A DNA stretch of 50,767 nucleotides. It comes from an uncultured Planctomycetales bacterium. GTDB lineage: Bacteria; Planctomycetota; Phycisphaerae; UBA1845; CAIVHJ01. The notes under the pieces were generated by a model. The model worked only from the letters and a program-made list of their open reading frames with translations. It was not told the DNA's origin and did not search any database. Below are positions 8,672 to 45,079 of this stretch, piece by piece. The position numbers and the translations under genes were made by a program. The stretch spans positions 1 to 50,767 of the forward strand of contig CAZUGO010000081.1 in the NCBI GenBank assembly GCA_964619935.1, in the 5' to 3' direction. Position 1 is the stretch's first letter; each line of letters opens with the position of its first letter.

Positions 8672-10435
8672 TCAGGTGAAGTCGGGGATCAGGGTGACGT
8701 CCTGGATGGTGTGTCCGGTCAGGTGGCTGACCGCCACGACCCGGGGCGGGTCGTGCGGCAGGGCGGTGGGCCAGAGAAACAGTCGATCGCGCAGCTCATT
8801 GGTGCCCACGATCCAGTCGGCGGCGACTTCCGCCCGCCGGATGGTCTGGCCGCCGGCCTGGTAGCGGCAACTGAAGGCGTCGCCAATGACCTGGGCGTGG
8901 ACTGCGGTTGAGGTGTCGCTGAAGAACAGCCGCCGCACGCCGTGGGCGCTCAACTGGGCCACCGATTCGATGCTGCGCGGCTGGCCGCGGTAGAGCGTCT
9001 CGGCGTGCTCAGGTTGCTCAACGGGCCAGCAATGGATGGTCCCCCCGGCCGTACCCGCCAGCGGGCCGGACGGCGTCGCCAGCAAGGCGGTGATCGCCGC
9101 GCCGGCCCCGTGGTACACCCGGCAGGGCGGGGCGTCAGGCTGATCGTGGTCCAGGGTCAAGGACAGCACCTGCTGGTCAACTGCCAGCCAGATCCGGTCC
9201 TGGGCAAACTGGACTTGTCGAACGGTGGCCGCGGCAGCGGTGCGACGGGGCAACAGCGGTTCGGCAGCGCCGCCGCGGGTGGTGTCCCAGCGCAACAGTC
9301 CCAGCTCCGAATGCGTGGCGTACAGATGAGTGCCGGCGAGGGCCACGGCGTTGAACCCGCCGCGCGGAGGTCGGTCTGCCTCAGCCAGGTAGGTGGCCGG
9401 CGGGGCCTCGGAATTCGCCGGCACCAGCACCGCCCCCCGGGCGGCCCCCACCAGCAACAGGGTGGTGCCGTCGGCGCTGCGCTCGCAAGTCAAAGAGCGC
9501 AAAGGGCCGGCGGCAGTCGACAACCGCTGGCGGTGCGCGGGCTGCTGGAGTTCTCGCGGGTCAAAGAACAACAACTCCGCTCCGCTGGCCACCACCACCC
9601 AGGCGGTGGGGGCGGGCCGGTCCGAGGTCCGCCACAGGGCGCCATACAAAAACGCGCGGTGACCGGGGCTGAAAGATTGGATCAACTCCTGCAGGCTCGC
9701 CTGCGGGGTCGCCGCCGCCAGATCGTGCAGGCGGGTCAAAGTCTGCTCCAGTTGGGTCAGGTGGGCATCGCGGGCCTCGGCAATGGCCTGCTGAATTTGT
9801 TGCTCGGCGCGGACCTGCTGTTGTTGTCGTTGCAGGCGCCGGCGCTGCTGTTCGGACTGGCGGTAGGCGCTGGAGTCGATCGTGGCACGGCACACCGCTT
9901 CGATCCGCAGCCCGCCGCGGAACAGTACCTCCTGGAGGGCCTCCCGTATGGACTCCAGCAGCGCCCGGCGATCGACATCGTCGCGCAGGGCCGCAGCAGT
10001 GGCCTGGCGCACCACCCGCCGGGTGGCCTGGAGCACGCCGGGCCGCAGGATGTCGCTGAGTTGTTGCCGGGTGACCCGCGGCTGGGTGCCGGCAATGGTT
10101 TCCCGAAACGCCTGGACGTCGTCTGGTTCGGGGTTCACCTGCACCTGCAACCCGATGTCGGCCGTGCAGTCGAAGTGATCGGCACTGGCCAGGTCGGTCA
10201 AGGCGAACTCCAGGATCACCGGTTGGGTGCGCAGCACGATGAGTTGCTCGGCGTCGCCGCGCTGGATGGCGGTTCCCGGCGGGCACCACACCCGGCCGCC
10301 ATGACTGCCGGCGACCAGGGCACACCAGTAAGGCGGCAGATCCACCGAGCGGTTCAACAAGCCAAAGAGTTGATCGCCGGGGATGATCGCGGCAACCACT
10401 TCGGGATTCTCTGTGATGGCTGACAGTTCGGTCAT
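8672..10435 (-). CDS. hypothetical multi-domain protein: SPFH/band-7-like N-terminal region, Gln/Arg-rich coiled coil, C-terminal beta-propeller-like region
   Basis: Start chosen at MTELSAITE (ATG 10435); the six-frame ORF is over-extended. The N-terminal ~170 aa resemble SPFH. The central segment QSEQQRRRLQRQQQQVRAEQQIQQAIAEAR is coiled coil. The C-terminal half is rich in repeated beta-strand/WD-like segments. It is the last gene of the ESCRT-like operon. Confidence 0.6.
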   Translation of the reverse strand: MTELSAITENPEVVAAIIPGDQLFGLLNRSVDLPPYWCALVAGSHGGRVWCPPGTAIQRGDAEQLIVLRTQPVILEFALTDLASADHFDCTADIGLQVQVNPEPDDVQAFRETIAGTQPRVTRQQLSDILRPGVLQATRRVVRQATAAALRDDVDRRALLESIREALQEVLFRGGLRIEAVCRATIDSSAYRQSEQQRRRLQRQQQQVRAEQQIQQAIAEARDAHLTQLEQTLTRLHDLAAATPQASLQELIQSFSPGHRAFLYGALWRTSDRPAPTAWVVVASGAELLFFDPRELQQPAHRQRLSTAAGPLRSLTCERSADGTTLLLVGAARGAVLVPANSEAPPATYLAEADRPPRGGFNAVALAGTHLYATHSELGLLRWDTTRGGAAEPLLPRRTAAAATVRQVQFAQDRIWLAVDQQVLSLTLDHDQPDAPPCRVYHGAGAAITALLATPSGPLAGTAGGTIHCWPVEQPEHAETLYRGQPRSIESVAQLSAHGVRRLFFSDTSTAVHAQVIGDAFSCRYQAGGQTIRRAEVAADWIVGTNELRDRLFLWPTALPHDPPRVVAVSHLTGHTIQDVTLIPDFT

Positions 10436-10484
10436 GTATCGATGCCCATGCCGCCGGAGGCCGTCGCGCTGGCGGGCGGCCCGG

Positions 10485-11588
10485 TTAGTCCTGGTTGAAC
10501 CGTTCGAACCTGGCCAGGTCGGCCGGGCGCACCGACGGTCGGGTGCTGCCGAGCACCTGGAGCACGTCGGCCATGCTAATGGCCCGGGCCTTCTGGCCCG
10601 CGATCGACTCCAGGAAGGCGTTGCGGGCGGCCTGTTCGGCAATGCTGGCGATGTCCGCTCCGCTGTAGCCTTCCAGGCGGTCGCAGAGCGCCCCGAAGTC
10701 GACGTCATCGGCCAGCGGGCGCTTCGACAGGTAGATCTCCAGCAGCTTGAAGCGGGCCGGGGCGTCCGGCAACGGGACGTAGATCCGGGCGTCCAGCCGC
10801 CCGGGCCGCATCATGGCATCGTCGAGCATCCAGGGTTTGTTGGTGGCGCCGACGAACAGCAGCGGGCGCGGGTGTTCCTCGAACCCTTCCAGCTCCTGCA
10901 GTATCTGCGGCACCACCCGTTGCATCACCGATGAGCCGCCGGAGGCCCGCTTGGGCACCAGGGCCTCGATTTCATCCATGAAGATGACCGACATGTCTTC
11001 GGCCTTGGCGGCGGCGAACAGCCGATTGAGGTTCTGCTCGGCCTCGCCGACCCACTTGCTCAAGATCTGGGCCGGGCTGATGACGAAGAAGGTGGCGCTC
11101 AACTCATGGGCGATCGCCCGGGCCATCATGGTCTTGCCGGTTCCGGGAGGCCCGTAGAGCAGCACCCCGCCGCCCGCCGAAATGCCGTAGGTCCGGGCCA
11201 GCTCGGGGTGGCTGAGCGGGTAGATCATCTTCAGGCGGATTTCGTCCTTGACGTCCTCCAGGCCGGCGATGTCAGCGAACCCGATGGCCGGCTTTTCCTT
11301 GACGATCCAATCGGAAACGTCGGCCCCGCGGTCGTCGGTGTCGGTGGTTCGCTGGCGGTTCGGCGGTCGCTGCGGTCGGGTTTCGCAATCGCGGGCCAGG
11401 TCGATCAACTCGCCGGCGTAGGTCTCGTGCTGGCGGCGCATCTCCGGCGAAGCGGTCCGGTCCGCCAGCGCGACCATCTGCTCGGCGGCCTGGATGAGGT
11501 AGGTCCGGGCGGTGTTGAACTCGCCGCGGCGGTAGGCGGCCACGCCCTTATCCTTGAGCCGCTCGAATGTTGAAAAAGGAGTCCCCAT
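10485..11588 (-). CDS. Vps4/spastin/katanin-clade AAA+ ATPase with N-terminal MIT-like three-helix domain
   Basis: MIT-like N-terminus (FERLKDKGVAAYRRGEFNTARTYLIQAAEQMVALAD). Meiotic-clade AAA core: Walker A GPPGTGKT, Walker B FMDEIE, SKWVGEAEQ, ATNKPWMLD. C-terminal RFERF is comparable to the Vps4 C-terminal helix. Start at ATG 11588, 25 nt after the upstream stop. Confidence 0.85.
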   Translation of the reverse strand: MGTPFSTFERLKDKGVAAYRRGEFNTARTYLIQAAEQMVALADRTASPEMRRQHETYAGELIDLARDCETRPQRPPNRQRTTDTDDRGADVSDWIVKEKPAIGFADIAGLEDVKDEIRLKMIYPLSHPELARTYGISAGGGVLLYGPPGTGKTMMARAIAHELSATFFVISPAQILSKWVGEAEQNLNRLFAAAKAEDMSVIFMDEIEALVPKRASGGSSVMQRVVPQILQELEGFEEHPRPLLFVGATNKPWMLDDAMMRPGRLDARIYVPLPDAPARFKLLEIYLSKRPLADDVDFGALCDRLEGYSGADIASIAEQAARNAFLESIAGQKARAISMADVLQVLGSTRPSVRPADLARFERFNQD

Positions 11589-11613
11589 TACCGTCGCCGA
11601 TCGTGGTGGTGAA

Positions 11614-12222
11614 CTACTGTTGCTTTTCGCCCTGGCGTTTGAGCGCGTCCAACTCCGCCCGCAGGCCGGCCAGTCGGTCCATTTCCTTGTGGTGTTCGGC
11701 TTCGGTCTCAGCGTCAATCAGGCGGTCGATGTCCTCGTCGGAGACGGCCAGCTCGCCGGTGCTGAGTTCTGCGTCCTGGGCGGCAATGTCCTCGATGGAA
11801 TCCAGAAACATGTTCATGCGCTCTTCCATGGATTGCGACTGTACCATGGCTTTCTCCCAGTCGGCCTGGGTCTTGACCAGGTCGGTCTCACCGAAGAGCT
11901 TGCCGATCTCGGCGGCCATGGTGCCCATGGCTCCGGCGAAGTCCGCAGATGCTTCGGCTTGCCGCTTGATGACCATGGCGTTCTTGACCGAGAGCAGTTG
12001 CCGTTCCAGCAGCCGCTGCATCATGGCGGTCTTCTTCAGCGAGTTGCGGATGAACCCGTATTGCCTGGTGTCGCCGATGGTCTTGGCCCGTTGGGCATTG
12101 CGAATGAACTCGTCCTGAAACTTCTGCTGTTCGCGGATGGCCTTCTCGATCCTGCGGATGCCCTGGCGAACCTTGATGTCGCGTTCGATCCGCCGCTCTT
12201 CAGCCGACTTGAACAAGCCCAT
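11614..12222 (-). CDS. ESCRT-III family protein, CHMP2/Vps2-like, with C-terminal MIM1-like helix
   Basis: N-terminus MGLFKSAEERRIERDIKVRQ. The core AMGTMAAEIGKLF...WEKAMVQSQSMEERMNMFLDSIED aligns by eye with CHMP2A AMGTMNRQL...MMEFERQAEIMDMKEEMMNDAID. The C-terminal EMDRLAGLRAELDALKRQ resembles a MIM1 (D/E-x-x-L-x-x-R-L-x-x-L-K/R). ATG at 12222 with GGAGGA 8 nt upstream. Confidence 0.8.
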   Translation of the reverse strand: MGLFKSAEERRIERDIKVRQGIRRIEKAIREQQKFQDEFIRNAQRAKTIGDTRQYGFIRNSLKKTAMMQRLLERQLLSVKNAMVIKRQAEASADFAGAMGTMAAEIGKLFGETDLVKTQADWEKAMVQSQSMEERMNMFLDSIEDIAAQDAELSTGELAVSDEDIDRLIDAETEAEHHKEMDRLAGLRAELDALKRQGEKQQ

Positions 12223-12910: not shown

Positions 12911-14356
12911 TCAGGATGGTTCAGGTTCGCGGGGCTGCCGCCGCCGTTCGGGCGAATCGTCGGCGGGGTCGGCGGTTCGGGCCGGCGGTTCCGCCGCGGC
13001 CGCGGGGCCCTCCGCTGCGGTCGTTGCCGACGCCTCGGCCGGTGGCTGGTCAAACTCCTGGAGGATGGCCAGCTCTTCGTCGGAGGTCAGCATGTCGCTG
13101 ATGCCGGTCTCCAGGGACCCGACCAGATCGGCATCGGCCTTGAGGGTTTCGAGCATTTCCTCGGCCTTGACCGCGTTTTCAGTGAGCGCCTCGGTGGCCG
13201 GCAGATCGGCCAGCTCGCCCTGTTGGATGAGCGTCAGGTTGTGGATGTCGGTGCTCAGGATGTTGATCTGCTTGTTGAGCATGTTGGCGGTGGCATTCTG
13301 GCGGGCCAGATCCTTCCGCAACTGGGCCACCTGGGCCGCCAGTCGCTGGCGGACCACCTGGGACGTGCTCTGCTTGCCTTGGTCGATGAGGCTGGCCTCG
13401 CGGGTCTCCAACTGGGCGATGTCGTCGTACATGCGATCGCGCCGCTGCGACAGCGCCGCCCGGCGGCGGGAGAGCTCGTTGATCTTGCGGGCCTCGTCGC
13501 CGGCGCTGCTGAACAGTTGCCGGATCTTGTCAACCATCGACATCGAAAAGCTCTCCTGTGTGTCGGATGCGGCCCCGCGATAAATCAGGAACGCGCCCTC
13601 ATGCCGCCCGGTGTGCAGCTCGGGATCGCGGCGGGCGGCCTGTTCGAACGCCCGGCGGGCGTATTCCTCGCCGACGCCCACCTCCCGGGCCACCGATTCG
13701 GCCGACAGGCCTCCGGTCAGGAGCACGGCGCGGTTGGCCTGCAGGAACTCGTCGACCCGCTGGACCTTGTCGTCCTCGTCTTCCGGGTCGAACAGGGCCG
13801 CCAGCCGGGGGTCGAGATCGTCGGTATCGCCGACCCGCTCCCAGCCCCCGTGGGCGCCGGGCTGGATCAGGACCAGCGTGACATTGCCCAGGCTCGAACG
13901 GGCCCGCAGTGCCTCCGGCGCGAAGCCCGTGGGGCTGCAAATGCCGATGATGTGCGGGACGTGCGGATCGACCTGCAATGATCTTACATGATCGAGCAAC
14001 TCACTGGAACCGATCGGCGGCCCGCCGCTGCCGGGCTGGCCGTCGAGCACGTGCCATTCCAGCGGCGAGAGCACCGAAGCGATGGCCACGCCGACCCGCC
14101 GCTTGCCGAACCACCACCACGGGCGGACGTAGCCGTGCAGGACCACGCGGCGGTTCTTGGGCGTGTCGGCCAGCACCCGGCGATCGAATTTGCGATTCCG
14201 GGCCATCAGCGAGCGCACGCGGTCAGCTTCATCCTGATGCACCAGATCCCAGTGGCTGCCCCGCAGCAAGGTGCCCTTGGCCCGCTCGAAGTTGTGCTCC
14301 ATGCCGGCCAGGAAGCGCGCCTCCAGTTCCACGATGGGGTCGGTGCTGCGGGTCAT
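12911..14356 (-). CDS. fusion protein: ~320-aa unknown N-terminal domain plus C-terminal ESCRT-III/Snf7-like domain
   Basis: The C-terminal ~200 aa (MVDKIRQLFSS...KINELSRRRAALSQRRDRMYDDIAQLETREASLIDQGKQ...MLNKQINILSTDIHNLT...TENAVKAEEMLETL...) have Snf7-like heptad/charge patterning. The N-terminal domain (RVVLHGYVRPWWWFGKRRVG...) is unassigned. The ATG at 14356 overlaps the kinase stop (ATGA). Confidence 0.65.
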   Translation of the reverse strand: MTRSTDPIVELEARFLAGMEHNFERAKGTLLRGSHWDLVHQDEADRVRSLMARNRKFDRRVLADTPKNRRVVLHGYVRPWWWFGKRRVGVAIASVLSPLEWHVLDGQPGSGGPPIGSSELLDHVRSLQVDPHVPHIIGICSPTGFAPEALRARSSLGNVTLVLIQPGAHGGWERVGDTDDLDPRLAALFDPEDEDDKVQRVDEFLQANRAVLLTGGLSAESVAREVGVGEEYARRAFEQAARRDPELHTGRHEGAFLIYRGAASDTQESFSMSMVDKIRQLFSSAGDEARKINELSRRRAALSQRRDRMYDDIAQLETREASLIDQGKQSTSQVVRQRLAAQVAQLRKDLARQNATANMLNKQINILSTDIHNLTLIQQGELADLPATEALTENAVKAEEMLETLKADADLVGSLETGISDMLTSDEELAILQEFDQPPAEASATTAAEGPAAAAEPPARTADPADDSPERRRQPREPEPS

Positions 14357-15405
14357 GATCGGGTTCCCGCCGGAAGGGTGCTCCCGCAGGTGATGCAGTA
14401 GTTGTCGTCCGGGTCGACGGTCGCCTGGCAGGACGGGCAGCACAGGACGGTGTCGACCAGTTGATTGCCGCATTGGATGCAGAACTGATCGTCGTCGGCG
14501 ACGCGGTTGCCGCAGTTCTTGCACAGCGGTGCCGTGGCCGAACGGCCGAGGTGCGGCGGCCGCCGCGGTCCGCCGCACCCGGTCGCGGCCGGGTCCAGCC
14601 GCAGGGCGGCCGCGACATCGGCTGCCCGGGTGAAGCGCTTCTCCAGGCGGGTGTAGCAGCGGCGGAAGACGTCGTCCAGCGCCGCGGGGATGTCGGGCCG
14701 GAGGGCGGACGGCAGGTCATGGCCCTGCGGTCGGACGCCGGTGAGCAGCTCGAACAGCACCACGCCGCAGGCGTACAGGTCGCTGCGGGCGTCGACTTCC
14801 TGACCGTCACGCTGCTCCGGCGACATGTAGGCCAGGGTTCCGGTGATGCCGCGGCCCTCCGCGCTCGGGAGGCTGCCGGACTGCATCAGCGACGCGGTGG
14901 TCAGGCCGCCCACGGTGCCCAGTCCGAAGTCGGCCACCTTGACGTCGTCGCGGACCACGGTGCCGACGTCGCGGTCGCCGAGGTGCAACAGAATATTGGC
15001 CGGCTTGATGTCGCGATGGATGATGCCGCCTTGGTGGGCGACGCCCAGGGCCGCGAGCACGCCCCGCAGAATCTCCACGGCCGCCGCGGTCGGCAGGCCG
15101 CCCGGGTGGGCATCGATGACCGCCCGCAGCGATGGGCCGTCGACATACTCCATGATCAGGTACGGCGGCGTGGCGAACGGGTCCAGGTCCAGGGCTCGCA
15201 CGATGTTGCCATGCCGCAGCCCATGAATGACCACTCCCTCGCGACGCAGGCATTGGACGTAGGCCGCAGCGGTCGGAATCTTGATGGCAACGACTTCGTC
15301 AAAGACGTGATGCCGGGCCTTCCAGACCACCCCGAAGCTGCCGGTGCCGATGTGCTCCTGCAACAGGTAGTTGTTGATGCGGTCGCCGGCCTGGCAGGTG
15401 CTCAT
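14353..15405 (-). CDS. Hanks-type Ser/Thr protein kinase with two C-terminal zinc-ribbon motifs
   Basis: Kinase motifs GTGSFGVV, AIK, HRDIKPANILL, DFG, SPEQ. C-terminus CKNCGNRVADDDQFCIQCG and CPSCQATVDPDDNYCITCG. ATG at 15405 with GGAAGGA 9 nt upstream. Confidence 0.9.
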   Translation of the reverse strand: MSTCQAGDRINNYLLQEHIGTGSFGVVWKARHHVFDEVVAIKIPTAAAYVQCLRREGVVIHGLRHGNIVRALDLDPFATPPYLIMEYVDGPSLRAVIDAHPGGLPTAAAVEILRGVLAALGVAHQGGIIHRDIKPANILLHLGDRDVGTVVRDDVKVADFGLGTVGGLTTASLMQSGSLPSAEGRGITGTLAYMSPEQRDGQEVDARSDLYACGVVLFELLTGVRPQGHDLPSALRPDIPAALDDVFRRCYTRLEKRFTRAADVAAALRLDPAATGCGGPRRPPHLGRSATAPLCKNCGNRVADDDQFCIQCGNQLVDTVLCCPSCQATVDPDDNYCITCGSTLPAGTRS

Positions 15406-26581: not shown

Positions 26582-29500
26582 ATGCGCTGGTTGAGACCGC
26601 ACTTGTTGGGCTGGGTGATCCTGAGCGGCGCGGCTCTGCCGCCGCTTGCAGCCCGGGATGTGGCCATGCCACCGGAGGCGGTTACCGATGCCACGCCTCG
26701 GCACCTGATCATCAATCAGATCTTGGGCCTGCGGGCCAGCCACCTGGTGTCGGTGGTGCTGTCCAATGATCCGGCCGGGGACGGCGTCCTTGCGACCTTG
26801 TCCCTGGATGGCCTCCCGGCGACGCTCCACTTGCGTTCGCACTCAGTGCGCTCCGACGCCTACCAGCTTCAGCTTGGACTTCCTGATGGCTCACGCCTCA
26901 CGGCGCCTTCGGGCCCGCTTCGGACCCTGCGCGGTATCGTCGAGGGTCATCCAGGCGCGGTGGTCGCGGGCTCACTGGGCACCGCCGGGTTAACGGCGCG
27001 CCTGCTGATGGCGGACGGACGGCGGCTGTGGCTGGAGCCCCTGGCGCCGCTGCTGGCGACGGCCGACCCAGGGGAGTACGTCGTGTACCAGGACGATGAC
27101 GTCACCGGCAGCGCCGGCGCATGCCGCGCCGTTCAAGACCGAGCGGCACAAGCCGCGTTGCTCAATCGCCGCGCCTTCGGTGCACCCTTCTGCACGGACG
27201 GTTTGTGTGTCGCCGAACTGGCTTGCGACGCGGACGTGGAGTACTTTGAGCACTGGGGCAGCATCGAGGCCGTCGAGGAGCGGATCAACAGCGTGATCAA
27301 TGCCGTGAACCTGCAGTTCGAGCGCGATGTTCAGATCAGCCACCTGATCACGACCCTCGTGATTCGCATGAGTGAGCCCGACCCATATGACGCATCCGAC
27401 GCCGATGCGCTGCTCAGCCAGTTCCGCCTCCATTGGCTTGTCAATCACACCGAGGTGCCGCGCGACCTCGCCCAATTGTTCACCGGGCGGAACCTCGACG
27501 GGACCACCGTGGGCGTGGCTTGGGTCGGTTCGGTGTGTGACAATCGGGCGTACTCGGTGGTGCAATCGGATTGGAGCAGCCAGTTCGGCTGTTCCACTGA
27601 CCTCAGCGCCCACGAGTTTGGACACAACTGGGGTGCAATCCACTGTGCGTGCCCGCAGCACACCATGAATCCATGGATTATTTGCGCCAACCAGTTCCAT
27701 CCCCAATTCACCATTCCGGACATCACCGGGTTTCGCGACACCCTGGAGTGCCTGAACGGGGTCGAGCCGGAGTGCGGCAACCAGGCCTGTGAGCCGTCCG
27801 AGAGTCCCTGCTCCTGCCCGACGGACTGCGGCGGCTGCTGCCTCGATGACGACTGCGACGACGGCATCGAGTGTACGGCCAACGGCTGCGATGTGGCGCA
27901 CGGCGAGTGCTTGTCCGTGCCCCTGGACGAAGACTGCGACAACGGCCTGCTTTGCGACGGGTCGGAGCAGTGTGACCCGTCCATCGGCTGCGTCCCGGGC
28001 ATCCCGGTGATCTGTGACGACGGTGTGGACTGCACGATCGATCAATGCAACGAGCAGGCTGGAGGGTGCACCCACCTGCCGGACGCGGCCCGCTGCGACG
28101 ACGATTTGTCGTGCAACGGTGCGGAGATTTGCGCGGCGGACGCCGGGTGTCTGCCGGGTTTGCCGCTGGACTGCGACGATGGGGTCGACTGCACGATCGA
28201 TCAATGCGACGAGCAGGCTGGAGGGTGCACCCACCTGCCGGATGCGGCCCGCTGCGACGACGATTTGTCGTGCAACGGTGCGGAGATTTGCGCGGCGGAC
28301 GCCGGGTGCCTGCCGGGCTTGCCGCTGGACTGCGACGATGGGGTCGACTGCACTGAAGACCGTTGCGACGATGCAGCCGGGTGCATCCATGAGCCCGTTG
28401 ATGCAGATTGTGCGGACGGTGTCTTTTGCAACGGGAGCGAATGGTGCGACGTGCTGGCCGGTTGTCAATCCGCCGCTGGGTCCCCGTGCGACGATGGGGT
28501 GGCCTGCACCGTGGAGACTTGCGATGAGCAAGCCGGTCGTTGCATGGTGCTTGCCGATCACGGGACCTGCGACAACGGCTTGTTCTGCGATGGTCCGGAG
28601 CAGTGTGACCTGCTCGCCGGCTGTCTGACTGGCACACCGCCGTGTGCCGAGGGCCTGTGCGATGAGCAAAGCCAAACCTGCCTGTGTGAGACCGAGGCCG
28701 ATTGTGCCGATCTCCCCGACGATTGCCTGACGGCGGTGTGTGATCCAGAGACGGGCATCTGCCAGACGAAAGCGGCGGCAGCGGAAACAGCGTGCGATGA
28801 CGGCGATCCGTGCTCCAGCGGCGATCGCTGTGCTGACGGCATTTGCCTTGGCGATGCCCTGGATTGCGACGACGACGATCCTTGCACTGCGGATTCCTGC
28901 AGCGACGGCGTGTGTCAGCACGATGCGGTCCTAGGCGATCTCGATGGGGACCAGGAACCGGATTGTTCTGACGGCTGCCCCCAGGATCCCGCGAAGACCG
29001 CGCCCGGGGCATGCGGCTGTGGTGTCCCGGAGGGTACTTGCGGGGTGCCGTTCGGCGGCGGCTCGTCCGGCGGCGGCGGGGGCGACTCTTGCGTGCCGTC
29101 GTCCTGCGACGATGGTGACGACTGTACGGCGGACTCCTGCATTGCAGGGGCCTGCGTGCACACCCCGATCCTCTGCGATGACGACGACGCCTGTACCAGC
29201 GACAGGTGCCGGGAGGGCGCCTGCGACCATGAACCCCTGGATTGTGCCGACCAGGATGCCTGCACCATCGACCAATGCCAGGACGGGTTCTGCAGTCATG
29301 CTCCGATGGACTGTGACGACGGTGACGGCTGCACCCTTGATTCTTGTGTGGATGGTGCCTGCGTGGGGAATCCCCTGGATTGTGATGACGGCGACCCCTG
29401 CACCATCGATGACTGCGGCGCCGGCGCGTGCACGCACGTCGCGGTGGCCTGCGACGATGGTGACGCGTGCACCCAGGATGTCTGCGACCCGGCAGCCGGT

Positions 29501-29836
29501 GGGTGCCTGCATCAGGCCTTCGATTGCGATGCGGACGGCGATGGGGTGGCGGATGTGGACGACCTTTGCCCACAGACGGCACCGGCCGAAGTCGATGCCC
29601 AGGGTTGCTCGGCGGCGCAGCGCGACCCGGCACCGGCCGGGCAGGAGGATCCTTCCCAAATGCCCGGCGCGGATCCGGACGACTTGGGGCAGCCCGGGTG
29701 CGGCGCCTGCCAGCCCCAACCGCTTGCCATGGTCCTGATGCTGCTGGGCTTCCTGGGGCTGCGCCGGCGGTGCGCTCTGAACGGAAACGGCCGGTCGTCC
29801 GCCGCCGACCCACGGCCGCGCCGTCGATCCGGCTAA
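26582..29836 (+). CDS. secreted metzincin zinc-metalloprotease with ~15 Myxococcus-type Cys-rich repeats and a MYXO-CTERM-like C-terminal sorting tail
   Basis: Signal peptide MRWLRPHLLGWVILSGAALPPLAA. Zinc-binding signature HEFGHNWGAIH (HExxHxxGxxH). About 800 aa of CxDGxxCTxDxCxxGxCxH repeats. C-terminal GCGACQPQPLAMVLMLLGFLGLRRR (Cys, TM helix, then Arg cluster). Confidence 0.8.
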   Translation: MRWLRPHLLGWVILSGAALPPLAARDVAMPPEAVTDATPRHLIINQILGLRASHLVSVVLSNDPAGDGVLATLSLDGLPATLHLRSHSVRSDAYQLQLGLPDGSRLTAPSGPLRTLRGIVEGHPGAVVAGSLGTAGLTARLLMADGRRLWLEPLAPLLATADPGEYVVYQDDDVTGSAGACRAVQDRAAQAALLNRRAFGAPFCTDGLCVAELACDADVEYFEHWGSIEAVEERINSVINAVNLQFERDVQISHLITTLVIRMSEPDPYDASDADALLSQFRLHWLVNHTEVPRDLAQLFTGRNLDGTTVGVAWVGSVCDNRAYSVVQSDWSSQFGCSTDLSAHEFGHNWGAIHCACPQHTMNPWIICANQFHPQFTIPDITGFRDTLECLNGVEPECGNQACEPSESPCSCPTDCGGCCLDDDCDDGIECTANGCDVAHGECLSVPLDEDCDNGLLCDGSEQCDPSIGCVPGIPVICDDGVDCTIDQCNEQAGGCTHLPDAARCDDDLSCNGAEICAADAGCLPGLPLDCDDGVDCTIDQCDEQAGGCTHLPDAARCDDDLSCNGAEICAADAGCLPGLPLDCDDGVDCTEDRCDDAAGCIHEPVDADCADGVFCNGSEWCDVLAGCQSAAGSPCDDGVACTVETCDEQAGRCMVLADHGTCDNGLFCDGPEQCDLLAGCLTGTPPCAEGLCDEQSQTCLCETEADCADLPDDCLTAVCDPETGICQTKAAAAETACDDGDPCSSGDRCADGICLGDALDCDDDDPCTADSCSDGVCQHDAVLGDLDGDQEPDCSDGCPQDPAKTAPGACGCGVPEGTCGVPFGGGSSGGGGGDSCVPSSCDDGDDCTADSCIAGACVHTPILCDDDDACTSDRCREGACDHEPLDCADQDACTIDQCQDGFCSHAPMDCDDGDGCTLDSCVDGACVGNPLDCDDGDPCTIDDCGAGACTHVAVACDDGDACTQDVCDPAAGGCLHQAFDCDADGDGVADVDDLCPQTAPAEVDAQGCSAAQRDPAPAGQEDPSQMPGADPDDLGQPGCGACQPQPLAMVLMLLGFLGLRRRCALNGNGRSSAADPRPRRRSG
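28024..28341 (+). repeat. near-perfect 159-bp tandem duplication (two copies, ~97% identical) inside the Cys-rich repeat region
   Basis: tgcacgatcgatcaatgc occurs at 28030 and 28189 (offset 159). The copies differ at ~5 positions. Each encodes 53 aa (CDDGVDCTIDQC[N/D]EQAGGCTHLPDAARCDDDLSCNGAEICAADAGCLPGLPLD). Confidence 0.85.
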
Positions 29837-36049: not shown

Positions 36050-36144
36050 GCCAACGGCATTGACACGGTGCGCTCTGTTTGGTAGGTTTGAAGCGGTGCA
36101 GTCGGATCGTGAGGAACAACCGCCGGTTGCGAGGCGCTGCGATT

Positions 36145-36582
36145 ATGGGACTCAACCCATCCAACACAACAGGGACGCCGGACCGGGTCGACGGTGACGG
36201 CCGCAAATACTTCACCGCGGAGCAAGCCAACGCGGCCTTGCCGCTGGTTCGCCGCATTGTGGGCGACATCGTGTCACAGCACCGCACGGTCATGGACCAT
36301 CATGCCCGCTTGCAGGCCCACGGTCTGAGCGACGCGGTGGTTGAGCGGGTCGATGGGGCGCGTCTGCTCGCCGCCGACCGTCTCAATGAACTGGTCACCG
36401 AACTGCACGACGTGGGCTGCGAACTCAAGGACTGGGAAACCGGCTTGGTCGATTTCCCGGCGCAGATGAACGGCCGCGAGGTATGTCTGTGCTGGAAGCT
36501 GGGGGAGTCGCAGGTCGCCTTCTGGCACGAAGTTCGCGCCGGATTCTCCGGCCGCCAGGCCTTGGCCGCCGCGGAGCAGTAG
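36145..36582 (+). CDS. DUF2203-like protein
   Basis: Start MGLNPSN. FTAEQANAALPLVRRIVGDI resembles the DUF2203 N-terminal motif (FTLEEAN.LLP). Confidence 0.55.
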   Translation: MGLNPSNTTGTPDRVDGDGRKYFTAEQANAALPLVRRIVGDIVSQHRTVMDHHARLQAHGLSDAVVERVDGARLLAADRLNELVTELHDVGCELKDWETGLVDFPAQMNGREVCLCWKLGESQVAFWHEVRAGFSGRQALAAAEQ

Positions 36583-36754: not shown

Positions 36755-37906
36755 TCAGTCCAGCCATTCCTTCTGGTTCTTCAACTTGCGCGGCAGATAC
36801 TCGGCGGTCAGGAAGGTCAGGCTCTTGCTGATCAGGGCTTCCACCTCCATCTTGAAGCCATTCTTGATCATCTGCTTGATTTCCTTTTCCCAGGGCTTTT
36901 TGCCCTTGAACCAGGGGTAGGCCAGAATCTGGCGGTTCCGCCTGATGTCGTTGGCGTCCAGGTCCAGCTTGACATCGTCGCTCAAGCCGCAGCGCTCATA
37001 ATCGAAGCTGGACACGCCGATGAACCGGGCCCCCGGGATGGCCATGCGCTGGGACTCGAACGCCAGGTTGATGGAACCCTGTTTGATCACCGAGTAGATG
37101 TAATAGCCCCAGGGGTCGTTATCCAACAGTACGTAGACCGGCAGCTTGAGTTCGTGGTGCAGGCGGTACAGCAGCCGGCGGACCCCGCGGGGCGGCTGAC
37201 CCCCGCCGTGGGTCAAGATGCAATGGTGGCCCTGCCAGAACTTGTCTTCGACAAAGCGCCGCCAGACCGTGCCCTTCTCGACGTGGAGCACGAACTTGGC
37301 CCGGCACTTCTTGAACTGGATGACATGCGGTTCGACGATGCTGGGGATGGCGTAGCCGCCGCTGCCCAACTGTGAAGCGTCGATCAGGTCGCCGGAGTCG
37401 ACGAACTGCAGTTCACCGATCAGGGCGCCCTTGCTGTCGGCGAAGACGTGCAGCTCCTCACGGAGGGCCCCGGTGGTGACCTCCAGATCCTCCAGAATCG
37501 GGTCGGATTCAGACTGGTCGTCGAAGGTCTTCTCGGAGGTGCCTCTGATGGTGTGCTTGGCCATGTAGTAAATCTGCCGGATGCTGGCCGACTTGCCGGC
37601 GTCGATCAGGTCTTTGCACTTGGAGGCCACCAGCAGCGTCTGCATGAAGCGCTTGGCTTGCCCGTAGTTGAAGAAGCTGCGCTGCTGCTTGCCGCCGCCC
37701 ATTTCAATGACCTTGGACTTGGGGTTGAACCGGACGTTGCTCAAGGATCGCAGTGGAATGTCGATGGCCGGGTCGTTGCCGCGGGAGGCCATGGTCACCA
37801 CCCGGCCGGCCAAGTCGTCCAGAAGGGTGCCGGCCTGATCCCTGTTCGCGGCTTTCCGGCCGGCGGCGCTGCTCTGCTTTCGAGACGTGCTTTTCTTCTG
37901 GGCCAA
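36755..37906 (-). CDS. top6A: DNA topoisomerase VI subunit A (Spo11/Top6A homologue)
   Basis: Winged-helix catalytic region (IRQIYYM...), Toprim region LPVYVLLDNDPWGYYIYSVIKQGS. TTG start at 37906 with AGGAG 7 nt upstream. Lys/Arg-rich N-terminal 25 aa. Confidence 0.88.
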   Translation of the reverse strand: MAQKKSTSRKQSSAAGRKAANRDQAGTLLDDLAGRVVTMASRGNDPAIDIPLRSLSNVRFNPKSKVIEMGGGKQQRSFFNYGQAKRFMQTLLVASKCKDLIDAGKSASIRQIYYMAKHTIRGTSEKTFDDQSESDPILEDLEVTTGALREELHVFADSKGALIGELQFVDSGDLIDASQLGSGGYAIPSIVEPHVIQFKKCRAKFVLHVEKGTVWRRFVEDKFWQGHHCILTHGGGQPPRGVRRLLYRLHHELKLPVYVLLDNDPWGYYIYSVIKQGSINLAFESQRMAIPGARFIGVSSFDYERCGLSDDVKLDLDANDIRRNRQILAYPWFKGKKPWEKEIKQMIKNGFKMEVEALISKSLTFLTAEYLPRKLKNQKEWLD

Positions 37907-37915
37907 GGCGGGCTC

Positions 37916-39820
37916 CTATCGGCGGCGGCGCCGGGCGCGGCGCGGTTTTGGGCTGGAGGCGGCCGGCTCGCCCAGCAGATCGTGCTGCGGGCCTGGCGCG
38001 GCGGGGCGCTCGACCACGATGGTGTTGGCCAGTTGCGGCGGGTCGGCCACGGGGCGGTCGATGCGCTTGCCGTGCTCGTCGAATTCCATGTCGGCGGCGG
38101 CGGTGAACCGGCGGGCCAGATCCACCAGGTTCCCGCGAAAACGGGCGGCATCGATGGTCCGGATGGAGCCCACGGCGCTGACCAGTTCGTCGATGTAGCG
38201 CGTGAACACGTCCCGGCGGGTGGCATACGCCTGGCGCTTGCGCTTGCGCTGCAACAGCACGCCGAGCCGCCGCCCGCACTCCTGGACGGCCAGCTTGATT
38301 TCCTTGCGGATTTCATCGTAGTCGGCCACCGCTTCCTTGGATTCGGAGGTAAACGGCACCCAGACGCTGGCGATGTGCAGCAGAATCAGCAGGGGACCGC
38401 TGGGCAAGGACCCGCGGGACTGCGAGACGCCGTAGTGACCCCACTTGGTATCGAGCACGCTCTTGAACATGCAGCAGGCGGACTGCTGGTAGAGCAGCGG
38501 CACGCGGTTGGCGAAGCGGAGCACGCGGGCTTGCCCGGGCTCGGTGCTCTTGCCGTTCTGGCCGTCGTCGTCGTTGCGATCGGGTCCGAGGTTGCCGCCG
38601 TAGGCCAGGCCGACCTCGATCTGGAAGGGATTGCCGCGATAGACCGCCGGCGGGCGGGTGCTGGCGGTGTAAAACTCGGCCTGGATGCCCTGCAGCATTC
38701 CCGACAGAATGTGCTCGGCGCCGATGGGGGCCAGGCAGTTGGTCGGCGGCGCCATCAGGCGCGTTTTCTGAAGTGCCTGGTACACCCGCTCGAGGTCGCT
38801 GCCCTGCAGCCGGCCGACGGTGGTTCTGCTGGTCAAGCCCGCCGCCTTGCAGACCTGGTCGGCCACCCGGGCACTGACCCGCGAGAAGTCCTTCTGCAAG
38901 AAGCCGCTGAGGGACTTGGCGGCGGTGTCGTCCAGCATTTTGATCATGGTGCCCAGTTCCACGCCGTGCGGATGCGGCTTGATCTCGACCGGGTTGTGCG
39001 GCAACGCTTCCACGCTGCGCGGATACTCCACCACCGCGTCGGTCGGCGACTTGTAGATGAAGTGGGCGTGCGGGTTGGCGATGGCGGTCTGGAGCATGTA
39101 TTCGTCGACCGACTGGCGGCCCTTGATGTAGCTGGCCACCAGTTCGATGGTCACCTCGGTGCCGTGGTCCCAATCGACGTCCGCCGGCTCCTCCTTGATG
39201 ATCTCCGGTTTGTTCTTCTTGGTGTCGATCTGAATCTGGTAGTGGTGGGCCTGCTGCTGCCGGGCGATCCGCGAGGTGACGTGGATCGGGCGCCCGGTGG
39301 TCAACAAGCCGTACATGCCGGCCGCCGAGATGCCGATGCCCTGCTGCCCGCGGGACATCTTCAGGCGGTGAAACTTGGAGCCGTACAGCAGCTTGCCGAA
39401 GATGTTGGGAATCTGTTGCTTGACGATCCCGGGTCCATTGTCGCGCACCGTCACACGATAGCGCTCGTCATCGAGTTGGTGCAGCAGCACCTCCAGGCGC
39501 GGCAGGATCAGGGCTTCCTCGCAGGCATCGAGGCTGTTGTCGACGGCCTCCTTGACGGTGGTCAGCAGGGCCTTGCGCTTGTTGTCAAATCCCAGCAGGT
39601 GGCGATTCTTGGCAAAAAACTCGGAGATGGAAATCTCACGCTGGGCCGCCGCCATGCTCTCCGCGGTGGCCCCGCGGGCCGGCCGCGAGGCCGGCCGCGC
39701 CGCAGAGGGCGTGGGCTTGGCGTGTGCACGAGGGGCCGGCCCAGGCCGGCCAGCGGCGCCGAACGACAGGTCCAACTGACGTGATGATTGCTTGGCTTTC
39801 TTCGCAGGGCTGCGCGCCAT
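37916..39820 (-). CDS. top6B: DNA topoisomerase VI subunit B (GHKL ATPase plus transducer)
   Basis: Bergerat-fold motifs EAVDNSLDA (N-box), VRDNGPGI (G1), GQQGIGISAAG (G2), then a transducer domain. ATG at 39820 with GAGGAAG upstream. ~55-aa basic/Pro-Ala-rich N-terminal extension. C-terminal PKPRRARRRRR. Confidence 0.88.
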   Translation of the reverse strand: MARSPAKKAKQSSRQLDLSFGAAGRPGPAPRAHAKPTPSAARPASRPARGATAESMAAAQREISISEFFAKNRHLLGFDNKRKALLTTVKEAVDNSLDACEEALILPRLEVLLHQLDDERYRVTVRDNGPGIVKQQIPNIFGKLLYGSKFHRLKMSRGQQGIGISAAGMYGLLTTGRPIHVTSRIARQQQAHHYQIQIDTKKNKPEIIKEEPADVDWDHGTEVTIELVASYIKGRQSVDEYMLQTAIANPHAHFIYKSPTDAVVEYPRSVEALPHNPVEIKPHPHGVELGTMIKMLDDTAAKSLSGFLQKDFSRVSARVADQVCKAAGLTSRTTVGRLQGSDLERVYQALQKTRLMAPPTNCLAPIGAEHILSGMLQGIQAEFYTASTRPPAVYRGNPFQIEVGLAYGGNLGPDRNDDDGQNGKSTEPGQARVLRFANRVPLLYQQSACCMFKSVLDTKWGHYGVSQSRGSLPSGPLLILLHIASVWVPFTSESKEAVADYDEIRKEIKLAVQECGRRLGVLLQRKRKRQAYATRRDVFTRYIDELVSAVGSIRTIDAARFRGNLVDLARRFTAAADMEFDEHGKRIDRPVADPPQLANTIVVERPAAPGPQHDLLGEPAASSPKPRRARRRRR

Positions 39821-39961
39821 CCTGGCTTCCTCAACTCCGGCACCATCATATGGTTTTTGCCCCCTAGATCAAGGCGATCGCGGCACCGTGCCGCGGCGAC
39901 CCGCACCCGCAGCGCCGCGAATCCGCGGAGGCGAATCGCCGTGACCGGCGCCACCAGGTGA

Positions 39962-43566: not shown

Positions 43567-44832
43567 TCACGGCTTCTCGATGAGCAGCGCGATGTTGATC
43601 AGGATTGACACCGTCAGCGCGATTCCCAGAATCCAGACCAACACCCAGTTCAGGTTGCCGCCGTTCTTGTCGGCATCGTCGATCATCAGCGCCGGCATGG
43701 AGACGGTCTCGCCACCAATGGCCAGTTCCTGCAGCACGTTGTGATCGTACTTGCTGCGCGCGATCAACGGCGGTTCGCCTTTCTTGATCGCTTCGAGATC
43801 GATCAACAAATCCTTGGTGCTGGTGTAGCGGTCTTCGCGCTTCTTGGCCATCAAGACCTCGATGACTTCACCGACGCCGGCGGTCAATGACGTGTTCAAG
43901 TGATCCGGTGGAACCAACGGCTGCTTGAGATGTTTGTGCATGACCGCCGACGGTGTGTTGCCTTCGAAGGGAACCTTGCCGGTGACCATGTGGTAGAAGG
44001 TGGCGCCCAGTGAATAAATGTCGGCGCGGAAGTCGATGTTCACCTCGCCGCGGATCTGTTCGGGACTGATGTAGTACGGCGTGCCGTAGGCCCGTCCGGC
44101 CTCGGCCATGGCCGCTTCCATGTCACTCATCTCGCGGGCCAGACCCATGTCGGCCAGTTTGACCACGCCCTGCTTGGTGATCATGATGTTCTTCGGCTTG
44201 ACGTCGCGATGGATGAAGCCGCGCTCGTGGGCGTGCTCCAGGGCTCGGGCGGTCTGAATGATGACGTCGATGGCCAGCGCTTCTTCATACACCTTGTTGT
44301 CGCGAAGGTCGTCCCAGACCGTCTTGCCGTCGATGTATTCCATCACGAAGTAGTGGTACCCGCCGGCCTCGCCGACGTCGATGGCCTGGACGATGTTGTT
44401 GTGGCTGAGCTTGGCGGCGGCCCGCCCTTCCTTATAGAAGCGGTTGACGAACTCCTCGTTCTCACTCATCCGCCGGGGCAGCACCTTGATGGCGACGATG
44501 CGGTCCAGGCTGAGCTGCTTGGCCTTGAACACCGTGGCCATCGCCCCCTGGCCCAGGCGGCCCAGCACCTGGAAACCCGGGATCTGCTGGGCCGGACGAT
44601 ACATGGAATCATCGCGGGAATCGTCGCTGAGCCGCTTGATCTGGCTCTCGGTGACGAAGCGGCGATCGACCAGCAGGCGGGGGACCGATACCGCCTTGCC
44701 GTTTTGCTGCAACCGCCGGGCCTCGTCGGAGCAAGCCGCCACCTCCTCGGCGGTGGCCAGCTTGTGGTCGACGATGGCACGCAGTAGCGCGTTGTCTTCC
44801 ATGGATTTACTCTTTAGCTCCGGCATGTTCAT
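43567..44832 (-). CDS. Ser/Thr protein kinase with C-terminal transmembrane anchor
   Basis: Kinase motifs GQGAMATV, AIKVL, HRDVKPKNIMI, DMG and SPEQ. C-terminal TM helix WVLVWILGIALTVSILINIALLI. Start at 44832 or 44826. Confidence 0.85.
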   Translation of the reverse strand: MNMPELKSKSMEDNALLRAIVDHKLATAEEVAACSDEARRLQQNGKAVSVPRLLVDRRFVTESQIKRLSDDSRDDSMYRPAQQIPGFQVLGRLGQGAMATVFKAKQLSLDRIVAIKVLPRRMSENEEFVNRFYKEGRAAAKLSHNNIVQAIDVGEAGGYHYFVMEYIDGKTVWDDLRDNKVYEEALAIDVIIQTARALEHAHERGFIHRDVKPKNIMITKQGVVKLADMGLAREMSDMEAAMAEAGRAYGTPYYISPEQIRGEVNIDFRADIYSLGATFYHMVTGKVPFEGNTPSAVMHKHLKQPLVPPDHLNTSLTAGVGEVIEVLMAKKREDRYTSTKDLLIDLEAIKKGEPPLIARSKYDHNVLQELAIGGETVSMPALMIDDADKNGGNLNWVLVWILGIALTVSILINIALLIEKP

Positions 44833-45079
44833 CTTGGCGGCCTGGCCAGGCCTGAGCGCCTGAAGACCTCTTTGAGCGGGTGAAGCGAGTGGGCAGTGTA
44901 CAAACACGGTTGCCCACAATCAATTGAATTAGGCACTGGCGTCCGCCCGCGGAGCCCCGGCAGGGGTCGCGAGTGCTACCGCCGGGCGACCCGAACGTCC
45001 CGGTCTGACGGGTTCCATCATTTCGCTTCGCCTAATGGAACTATAGGCGGCAAGGGGATTTATTTCCTGCGGGTTCCGG

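Follow-up and report, generated by a model that had tools for sequence, protein, structure and literature searches.

The stretch of DNA analysed here, called the window below, is the 50,767-nucleotide (nt) contig CAZUGO010000081.1 of assembly GCA_964619935.1, from an uncultured Planctomycetales bacterium of the class Phycisphaerae. Two adjacent genes on its minus strand, top6B and top6A, encode the subunits of a DNA topoisomerase VI (Topo VI), and both subunits carry basic terminal tails. The two Top6B tails each hold a conserved short motif, and the N-terminal one resembles the peptides through which bacterial proteins bind the beta clamp (DnaN). The top6B coding sequence (37916..39820, minus strand) runs from an ATG start to a TAG stop and specifies 634 amino acids (aa); it was delimited from the list of open reading frames (ORFs) and from profile and structure matches. 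The top6A coding sequence (36755..37906, minus strand), also assigned by profile and structure matches, has a TTG start and a TGA stop and specifies 383 aa. Both were found exactly where, and in the order in which, the original prediction had placed them, and the NCBI records contain identical proteins of 634 aa and 383 aa.

The start of top6A lies 9 nt past the stop of top6B, in the junction sequence ...CGA TAG GAG CCC GCC TTG. The Shine-Dalgarno sequence of top6A, AGGAG (37913..37917, minus strand), overlaps the top6B TAG (37918-37916) and is situated 6 nt before the TTG, which confirmed the compact operon that had been proposed. For top6B, a GAGGA Shine-Dalgarno sequence (39828..39832, minus strand) precedes the ATG by 7 nt. 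Both sites were read directly from the sequence, and the ATG at 39820 is the furthest upstream start available in this ORF. A consensus scan revealed a sigma-70-like promoter candidate upstream of top6B (39845..39872, minus strand), with TTGATC, a 16-nt spacer and TATGAT. One site was found where 0.5 were expected by chance, which makes it weak evidence. No credible terminator for the top6B-top6A operon was found in the scan for transcription signals. The GC content (0.64-0.67) and the GC content at third codon positions (GC3, 0.88) of both genes were like those of the neighbouring genes and the rest of the contig.

That the locus encodes Topo VI, Top6B followed by Top6A, is practically beyond doubt. 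Top6B matched the transducer family PF09239 (2.3e-53, residues 358-532), PF02518 (8e-11) and PF13589, and it passed the equivalog cut-offs of NF003218 (660.3 bits, cut-off 274) and TIGR01052 (508.1 bits, cut-off 380.7). Top6A matched PF21180 (3.4e-57) and the 5Y-CAP winged helix PF04406 (2.8e-18), and it scored 533.8 bits with NF003333, for which the equivalog cut-off is 465. The best PDB match of Top6B was M. mazei 2q2e_B (1.6e-138, residues 52-553), and that of Top6A was S. shibatae 2zbk_A (3.9e-77, residues 19-378). The affinities of the two subunits were thus discordant, with Top6B scoring 466 bits against M. mazei vs 284 against S. shibatae, and Top6A scoring 263 bits against S. shibatae vs 164 against M. 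mazei.

All peptides quoted in the original prediction are present: EAVDNSLDA (residues 91-99), DNGPGI (127-132) and GQQGIGISAAG (158-168) in Top6B, LLDNDPWGYY (260-269) in Top6A, and the three tails. The GHKL residues of Top6B, E91 and N95 of the N-box, D127/G129/G131 of the G1 box (DxGxG) and G158-G163 of the G2 box, were invariant over 70 aligned sequences, archaeal-type representatives included. The switch lysine K495 and E493, both in FTSESK, were likewise invariant in the alignment. In Top6A, the catalytic tyrosine is Y113/Y114 in IRQIYY (109-114), aligned to tirdlYY of the S. shibatae subunit. Its Toprim metal site is formed by E210 in HVEKG and by D262/D264 in LLDNDPWGYY; the counterparts in the 2zbk_A alignment are vvEKd and ltDaDpyg. 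Because all catalytic residues are conserved, the two subunits should form an intact A2B2 type IIB topoisomerase, capable of ATP-dependent strand passage, relaxation and decatenation.

Two DNA-sensing elements of Top6B, the loop KGRR together with the stalk/WKxY motif, are essential in M. mazei (PMC5922973). In the window, the loop reads KGRQ (residues 233-236; 39113-39124, minus strand) and the second motif reads WGHY (460-463; 38432-38443, minus strand). W460 and Y463 are invariant, the lysine is not kept, and the consensus of the clade is KWNNY. The basic tails might make up for the basic contacts lost at these two places. The Top6B transducer also contains an acidic, Gly-rich insertion, GPDRNDDDGQNGKSTEPGQ (residues ~411-430; ~38531-38590, minus strand), which corresponds to a gap in M. 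mazei Top6B and was modelled less confidently, with a predicted local distance difference test score (pLDDT) of ~70.

The AlphaFold2 (AF2) model of Top6B, calculated from the 70-sequence alignment, had a predicted template modelling score of 0.81 and was confident over residues 53-602. This folded core (38015..39664, minus strand) comprises the GHKL ATPase, the H2TH domain, the transducer and the C-terminal helices and strand. The regions on either side, residues 1-50 and 603-634, were modelled with no secondary structure, at a pLDDT of 45-62 (52-58 for the C-tail). The N-terminal tail (residues 1-50; 39671..39820, minus strand) is Pro/Ala-rich, predicted to be disordered, and has a net charge of +10. 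The C-terminal tail (residues 603-634; 37919..38014, minus strand) is also predicted to be disordered, with a net charge of +5, and it finishes in the basic end PKPRRARRRRR (residues 624-634; 37919..37951, minus strand). Top6A has a basic N-terminal tail only (residues 1-27; 37826..37906, minus strand), with a net charge of +6.

Tail conservation among orthologues had been suggested as a check. Of the 120 closest Top6B orthologues in the databases, 114 had an N-terminal tail of 20 aa or more. The stretch before the core measured ~45-90 aa in the clade, vs 13-20 aa in archaeal-type representatives. Similarly, the last 30 Top6B residues had a median net charge of +9 in the clade vs -1 in the archaeal-type representatives, in agreement with the earlier statement that canonical archaeal enzymes have no such tails. 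The last 20 residues of the Top6B orthologues consisted on average of 50% lysine and arginine (K+R). The Top6A tails of 96 orthologues contained 41% K+R and typically started with 'MAKKK...'; their length had a median of 26.5 aa and their net charge one of +11. The tails are almost certainly translated and under selection. Their earlier description as basic, low-complexity sequence was correct as to the charge; it did not hold as to low complexity only, as each Top6B tail contains a conserved motif (QLxLxF or xLF[D/E]) embedded in variable sequence. Peptides of these tails include SSRQLDLSFGAAG and GPQHDLLGEPA, and PEPETLFDVGE from an orthologue.

The N-terminal motif of the window, QLDLSF (residues 15-20; 39761..39778, minus strand), was recognized by its conservation in orthologues and is a putative beta-clamp-binding hexapeptide. 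The pattern Q[LM]x[LF]x[FLY] occurred in 85 of the 114 orthologue N-tails, vs a mean of 0.02 expected from 500 composition-preserving shuffles, and its position was fixed, the median start being residue 16. Many of the close orthologues without the strict motif carried QxEFxF variants. Independently of any regular expression, QLxLxF emerged as the sole majority-consensus island of the N-tail in the MAFFT alignment A1. The linker between the motif and the core was basic, 28-65 aa long (median 40), and variable in sequence.

The motif was also checked at the DNA level, regardless of gene calls, by reading 74 genome loci from the conserved core in the upstream direction until the first stop codon in frame was reached. 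The hexapeptide was encoded in frame in 25 of them. In more distant loci, pentapeptides stood at the same place, namely QLSLF (L016, L024), QLRLF (L025) and QSLLF (L079). Further variants at this position were QLLF (L030, L035) and PSLF/TLF[D/E] (L029, L031, L032, L037, L045, L056). Any of these motif classes was present in 41 of the 74 loci, with 4.0 expected by shuffling. Near-terminal hexa- and pentapeptide motifs were concentrated in Top6B: across the window and the related loci (907 ORFs, 327,686 aa), they were found in 25 Top6B ORFs vs 4 of ~830 other ORFs. Among the 40 proteins of the window, the sole other QLxLxL-type match was internal, QLQLGL at residue 95 of an M12B metalloprotease. 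No recognisable terminal clamp motif was seen in the HolA and PolX proteins of the window (by eye for HolA).

Some database sequences deviated from this pattern. P0250/P0396, Top6B sequences from ENA/JGI metagenomes with 52% identity to the window, are without the N-terminal motif and end in ...DGQLDLVK, which suggests that a clamp-type motif has moved to the extreme C-terminus in another sub-lineage. P0251/P0391 have QLSLL at residue 11, and P0308 has QASLF at residue 14.

The C-terminal tails of the Top6B orthologues showed a constant order: a conserved 'DTIVV' strand, followed by P-[D/E]-P-x-T-L-F-[D/E], followed by the K/R-rich end. 'LF' was present in 98 of 107 orthologue C-tails, vs 3.5 expected from shuffles, and in 65 of 70 genome loci, again vs 3.5. 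The few exceptions, the window among them, have LL or LI there. The window form of the motif P-[D/E]-P-x-x-L-F-[D/E] is DLLGE (residues 614-618; 37967..37981, minus strand). In the Top6A tails, a clamp-type or LF motif was found in only 1 of 120, and this match was spurious.

Clamp-binding peptides follow the consensus QL[S/D]LF or QxxLF, with xxxLF in weaker sites, and a tight E. coli peptide has the sequence QLSLPL (PMC12309361). The hexapeptide of the DNA polymerase III (Pol III) alpha subunit is 1154-QVELEF-1159 (PMC2705854), and RecB binds the clamp with QVEMEF, for which the terminal F is required (bioRxiv 10.1101/2025.08.20.671105). The motifs are typically located on flexible termini (PMC3971601). 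QLDLSF fits the hexapeptide form of the consensus, with Q1, L4 and the terminal F all matched. The motif segment had a pLDDT below 50 and no secondary structure, and would thus be an exposed flexible terminus, as expected of clamp motifs. A clamp motif would predict the fit of QLDLSF, the occurrence of QLSLF in relatives, the interchange of both forms in disordered tails, and their location on a DNA-replication enzyme.

A Q-x-x-L-(x)-F/L peptide on a flexible terminus is what Top6B has in common with known clamp binders, such as Pol III alpha (QVELEF/QADMF), PolC (QLSLF), Hda (QLSLPL), RecB (QVEMEF) and insertion sequence (IS) transposases. The Top6B motif is N-terminal, as in Hda, whereas a C-terminal placement is more usual among clamp binders. 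In a review table, Topo II-alpha and Topo I appear among the partners of PCNA, but the bacterial clamp partners include no topoisomerase (PMC9690074). In the literature searched, we found no paper that connects the clamp with Topo VI or with any other topoisomerase of bacteria.

Judging from the sequence, it is slightly more likely than not that the N-terminal motif of Top6B binds DnaN. For the C-terminal motif, binding to DnaN is a tentative suggestion, which we would sooner doubt than accept. For the enzyme as a whole, we lean with modest confidence towards a decatenase which replaces Topo IV and which would be tethered by its tails to beta clamps and DNA. Extended to the phylum, the proposal is that Planctomycetota Topo VI is a replisome-coupled decatenase, whose B subunit is recruited via the N-terminal QLxLxF/QLSLF, perhaps with a second, C-terminal xLF; we give this an even chance.

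Under this proposal, Topo VI would be the dedicated decatenase and relaxase of positive supercoils in the lineage. The N-terminal motif of Top6B would dock in the hydrophobic cleft of the beta clamp, and the C-terminal xLF[D/E] possibly as well, with a flexible basic linker of ~40 residues connecting the N-terminal motif to the core. The K/R-rich ends of the B tails and the basic N-tail of the A subunit would add non-specific affinity for DNA, in a way similar to the Topo II C-terminal domain or to BIN4/RHL1 of plants (PMC2647321). Tethering to clamps accumulated on newly replicated DNA could then concentrate the enzyme at precatenanes and crossings. An A2B2 enzyme would offer two to four motifs to a clamp dimer with two pockets. 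The tails would thus represent an adaptation that lets an archaeal-type enzyme plug into a bacterial replisome. The original prediction had regarded them as possible DNA-binding or localisation appendages, with which the conserved motifs and basic tracts are consistent.

The main alternative is that the tails are non-specific basic appendages, serving DNA binding or solubility, and that their LF motifs bind a partner other than the clamp. Such a target could be an unknown planctomycete partner, or an intramolecular or inter-subunit site, for example at the GHKL dimer interface or on Top6A, with a role in regulating gate closure. The strong basicity of the tails speaks for it (+10, +5 and +6 in the window for the B N-tail, B C-tail and A N-tail, and medians of +9 to +11 in the orthologues), and so does the absence of the classic clamp-motif Q from the PxPxxLF[D/E] of the C-tail. 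In addition, N-terminal straps in the GHKL family are known to swap between protomers, which also counts for a binding site within the enzyme. However, the N-terminal motif fits the clamp consensus at three key positions and alternates between QLxLxF and QLSLF at the same place. The length range and sequence variability of the linker are more in keeping with a docking peptide on a tether than with a structural element, and the motif is not packed on the core in the AF2 model. We therefore consider this alternative rather unlikely, though it is the strongest of those weighed here.

Several points weigh against clamp tethering. The assignment is drawn from motif resemblance and conservation, and motifs of the clamp-binding kind are short and degenerate. 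About 45% of the genome loci, including a whole short-tailed sub-clade of Phycisphaerales, do not have the N-terminal motif. It is also missing from other bacterial Topo VI clades, which still have basic tails, an observation that also favours the non-clamp alternative. Ten divergent long-tailed Top6B representatives were looked up for their taxonomy, and the two with names belonged to Planctomycetes and Deltaproteobacteria. The Deltaproteobacteria-type Top6B and a clade with K/A-rich tails, for instance, have no LF motifs, and generality beyond Planctomycetota is thus unsupported. The N-terminal motif is a lineage-specific elaboration and is not required by bacterial Topo VI generally. In its C-tail, the window has the weaker LL variant, with no Q at the canonical position. 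The 4 other ORFs with near-terminal motifs, among which a true clamp binder had been hoped for, comprised a DUF123 protein and antisense ORFs that are probably spurious, and hence yielded no positive control. Finally, as the metagenome-assembled genome (MAG) is represented by a single contig, the presence of gyrase and absence of Topo IV is taken for it from published relatives.

A second alternative is that the Top6B N-tail is an annotation artefact, with translation truly starting at the internal ATG of M56 (39655-39653, minus strand) and the tail being an untranslated leader. M56 is located where the homology to archaeal Top6B begins (residue 52), a GGAG lies 3 nt upstream of it, and a few database entries begin at the equivalent Met (P0015, P0023, P0055, P0077). 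Nevertheless, M56 was rejected as the start because 85 of 114 orthologues and 25 genome loci encode the conserved motif in frame before this Met, and the spacing between the motif and the upstream start is constant. The first 55 codons have a GC3 of ~78% by our own count, which is coding-like. Moreover, of the two candidate starts, it is the upstream ATG whose Shine-Dalgarno sequence is better spaced (GAGGA, 7 nt), and NCBI calls the 634-aa product. An artefact is accordingly very improbable, and the start codons which include the tails, as originally predicted, are upheld by the in-frame motif and the Shine-Dalgarno sites.

The chance that the locus represents another GHKL/Toprim system (Topo VIII, Mini-A or MutL-like), or an archaeal fragment present through recent transfer or contamination, is close to nil: Topo VIII is known in some Planctomycetes (PMC7671362) and weak MutL and histidine-kinase matches appeared among the profile results, but the two genes are separate and chromosomal, unlike the fused Topo VIII, the Topo VI equivalog cut-offs were passed widely, the MutL model NF000951 reached 22.3 bits vs a cut-off of 391, GC and GC3 equal those of the neighbours, the flanks are bacterial housekeeping genes (holA, ftsK, obg, sigma-70, clpS) and the clade extends over at least 586 bacterial species genomes. 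Topo VIII, MutL-like and archaeal-contaminant identities were thus refuted by the profile and structure matches and the clade-wide distribution, and Topo VI remained the best match, as originally proposed.

Relatives were searched in one genome per species and were found in at least 586 species-level genomes. Taxonomy was taken from the best 80 of these, which were nearly all Phycisphaerae/Planctomycetota. The nearest Topo VI relatives were 60-80% identical and formed well over 100 clusters, the named ones being MAGs of Phycisphaerae/Planctomycetota. The order B-then-A with adjacent genes was found in 45 of 80 related loci, and is thus common in the clade, but not universal. Among loci with full flanks, no top6A was present within 6 kb of top6B in L004, L015, L022, L030, L031, L033, L035, L037, L038, L040, L043, L045, L056 and L064.

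Topo VI in Phycisphaerae is already known, and the enzyme itself is not new. Allen & Maxwell 2024 reported it from two Phycisphaerae families (Anaerohalosphaeraceae and Sedimentisphaeraceae) and three Pirellulales families (PMC11302465). The view of Topo VI as sporadic in bacteria, repeated in the original prediction, does not apply to this lineage, given the number of genomes with relatives and the published occurrences. Rather, Topo VI is a stable, vertically inherited component of Phycisphaerae/Planctomycetota genomes. According to the same study, gyrase is present in every bacterium that has Topo VI, and Topo IV is missing from those that do not belong to Pseudomonadota or Terrabacteria; gyrase with no Topo IV suggested a decatenase role for the enzyme in these bacteria (PMC11302465). 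Topo VI is described elsewhere as a preferential decatenase (PMC8837201). Forterre & Gadelle proposed that the rarity of Topo VI in bacteria reflects its need for domain-specific partners (PMC2647321).

The gene context of the window is bacterial, with holA (Pol III delta), ftsK, polX, flagellin, a sigma-70 factor, clpS, obg, coaX and Ser/Thr kinases. The 50.8-kb window contains no genes for gyrase, Topo IV or Topo III, and no dnaN gene either. The holA gene (PF06144, PF21694; 33872-34870, plus strand) is ~3 kb from the Topo VI operon, and its presence implies that the host has a bacterial clamp-loader/beta-clamp system. A DUF2203 gene (36079-36582, plus strand) is convergent to top6A, a position kept only in the three closest loci, L001-L003. 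Further away, an AAA ATPase (10485-11717, minus strand) whose C-terminal domain is Vps4_C-like (PF09336, 26 bits) adjoins, and as called overlaps, a 678-aa SPFH/Band 7 protein (8672-10708, minus strand). A Vps4-like ATPase beside an SPFH/Band 7 protein is an unusual pairing for a planctomycete. The M12B metalloprotease mentioned above is a reprolysin-like protein of 1084 aa (26582-29836, plus strand) with Dictyostelium-type CTDC repeats (PF00526, 2.5e-33). Two Ser/Thr protein kinases, one with a C-terminal double zinc ribbon (14353-15405, minus strand) and a second one at 43567-44919 (minus strand), are typical of Planctomycetota and unrelated to Topo VI.

Compared with archaeal Topo VI (M. 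mazei 2Q2E, S. shibatae 2ZBK), the window enzyme shares the B-then-A gene pair, the GHKL/H2TH/transducer and 5Y-CAP/Toprim architectures and all catalytic residues. It differs by its 50-aa B N-tail, its 32-aa B C-tail and its basic A N-tail, and, from the M. mazei enzyme, by having no Ig-like C-terminal domain. The bacterial Topo VI of PMC11302465 (Anaerohalosphaera, Sedimentisphaera, Pirellulales) is the same enzyme, from the same phylum and class, and searching that paper by terms turned up nothing on terminal tails or on motifs for partner binding. Within this group, the window falls in the sub-clade with the hexapeptide N-terminal motif. Topo VIII and Mini-A share the GHKL plus Toprim/5Y-CAP chemistry with the window enzyme; Topo VIII, however, joins both halves in one polypeptide and is carried by plasmids or integrated elements, whereas the two genes of the window are separate and chromosomal.

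The C-terminal domain of eukaryotic Topo II-alpha and the plant Topo VI accessory proteins BIN4 and RHL1 are likewise disordered, basic appendages or partners, which provide a type II topoisomerase with additional DNA or chromatin contacts and with targeting; they have no sequence relationship to the window tails. BIN4 and RHL1 resemble the C-terminal domain of Topo IIA (PMC2647321). The window tails are fused to the catalytic subunits, and their candidate partner is the bacterial clamp.

What is new here are the two short linear motifs conserved in the tails of Top6B, of which the N-terminal motif matches the beta-clamp consensus. Should the clamp proposal be false, the locus would be an ordinary member of the catalogued bacterial Topo VI clade with basic tails. 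If it is true, Planctomycetota Topo VI would be the first type II topoisomerase of bacteria with a demonstrated role as clamp client, adding topoisomerases to the clamp 'tool-belt', in parallel to the link between PCNA and Topo II-alpha in eukaryotes. It would also bear on the clamp cleft and Topo VI as drug targets, and would illustrate how short linear motifs adapt a horizontally acquired machine to a new host. The tails would then explain the domestication of an archaeal-type enzyme able to stand in for Topo IV in a whole phylum.

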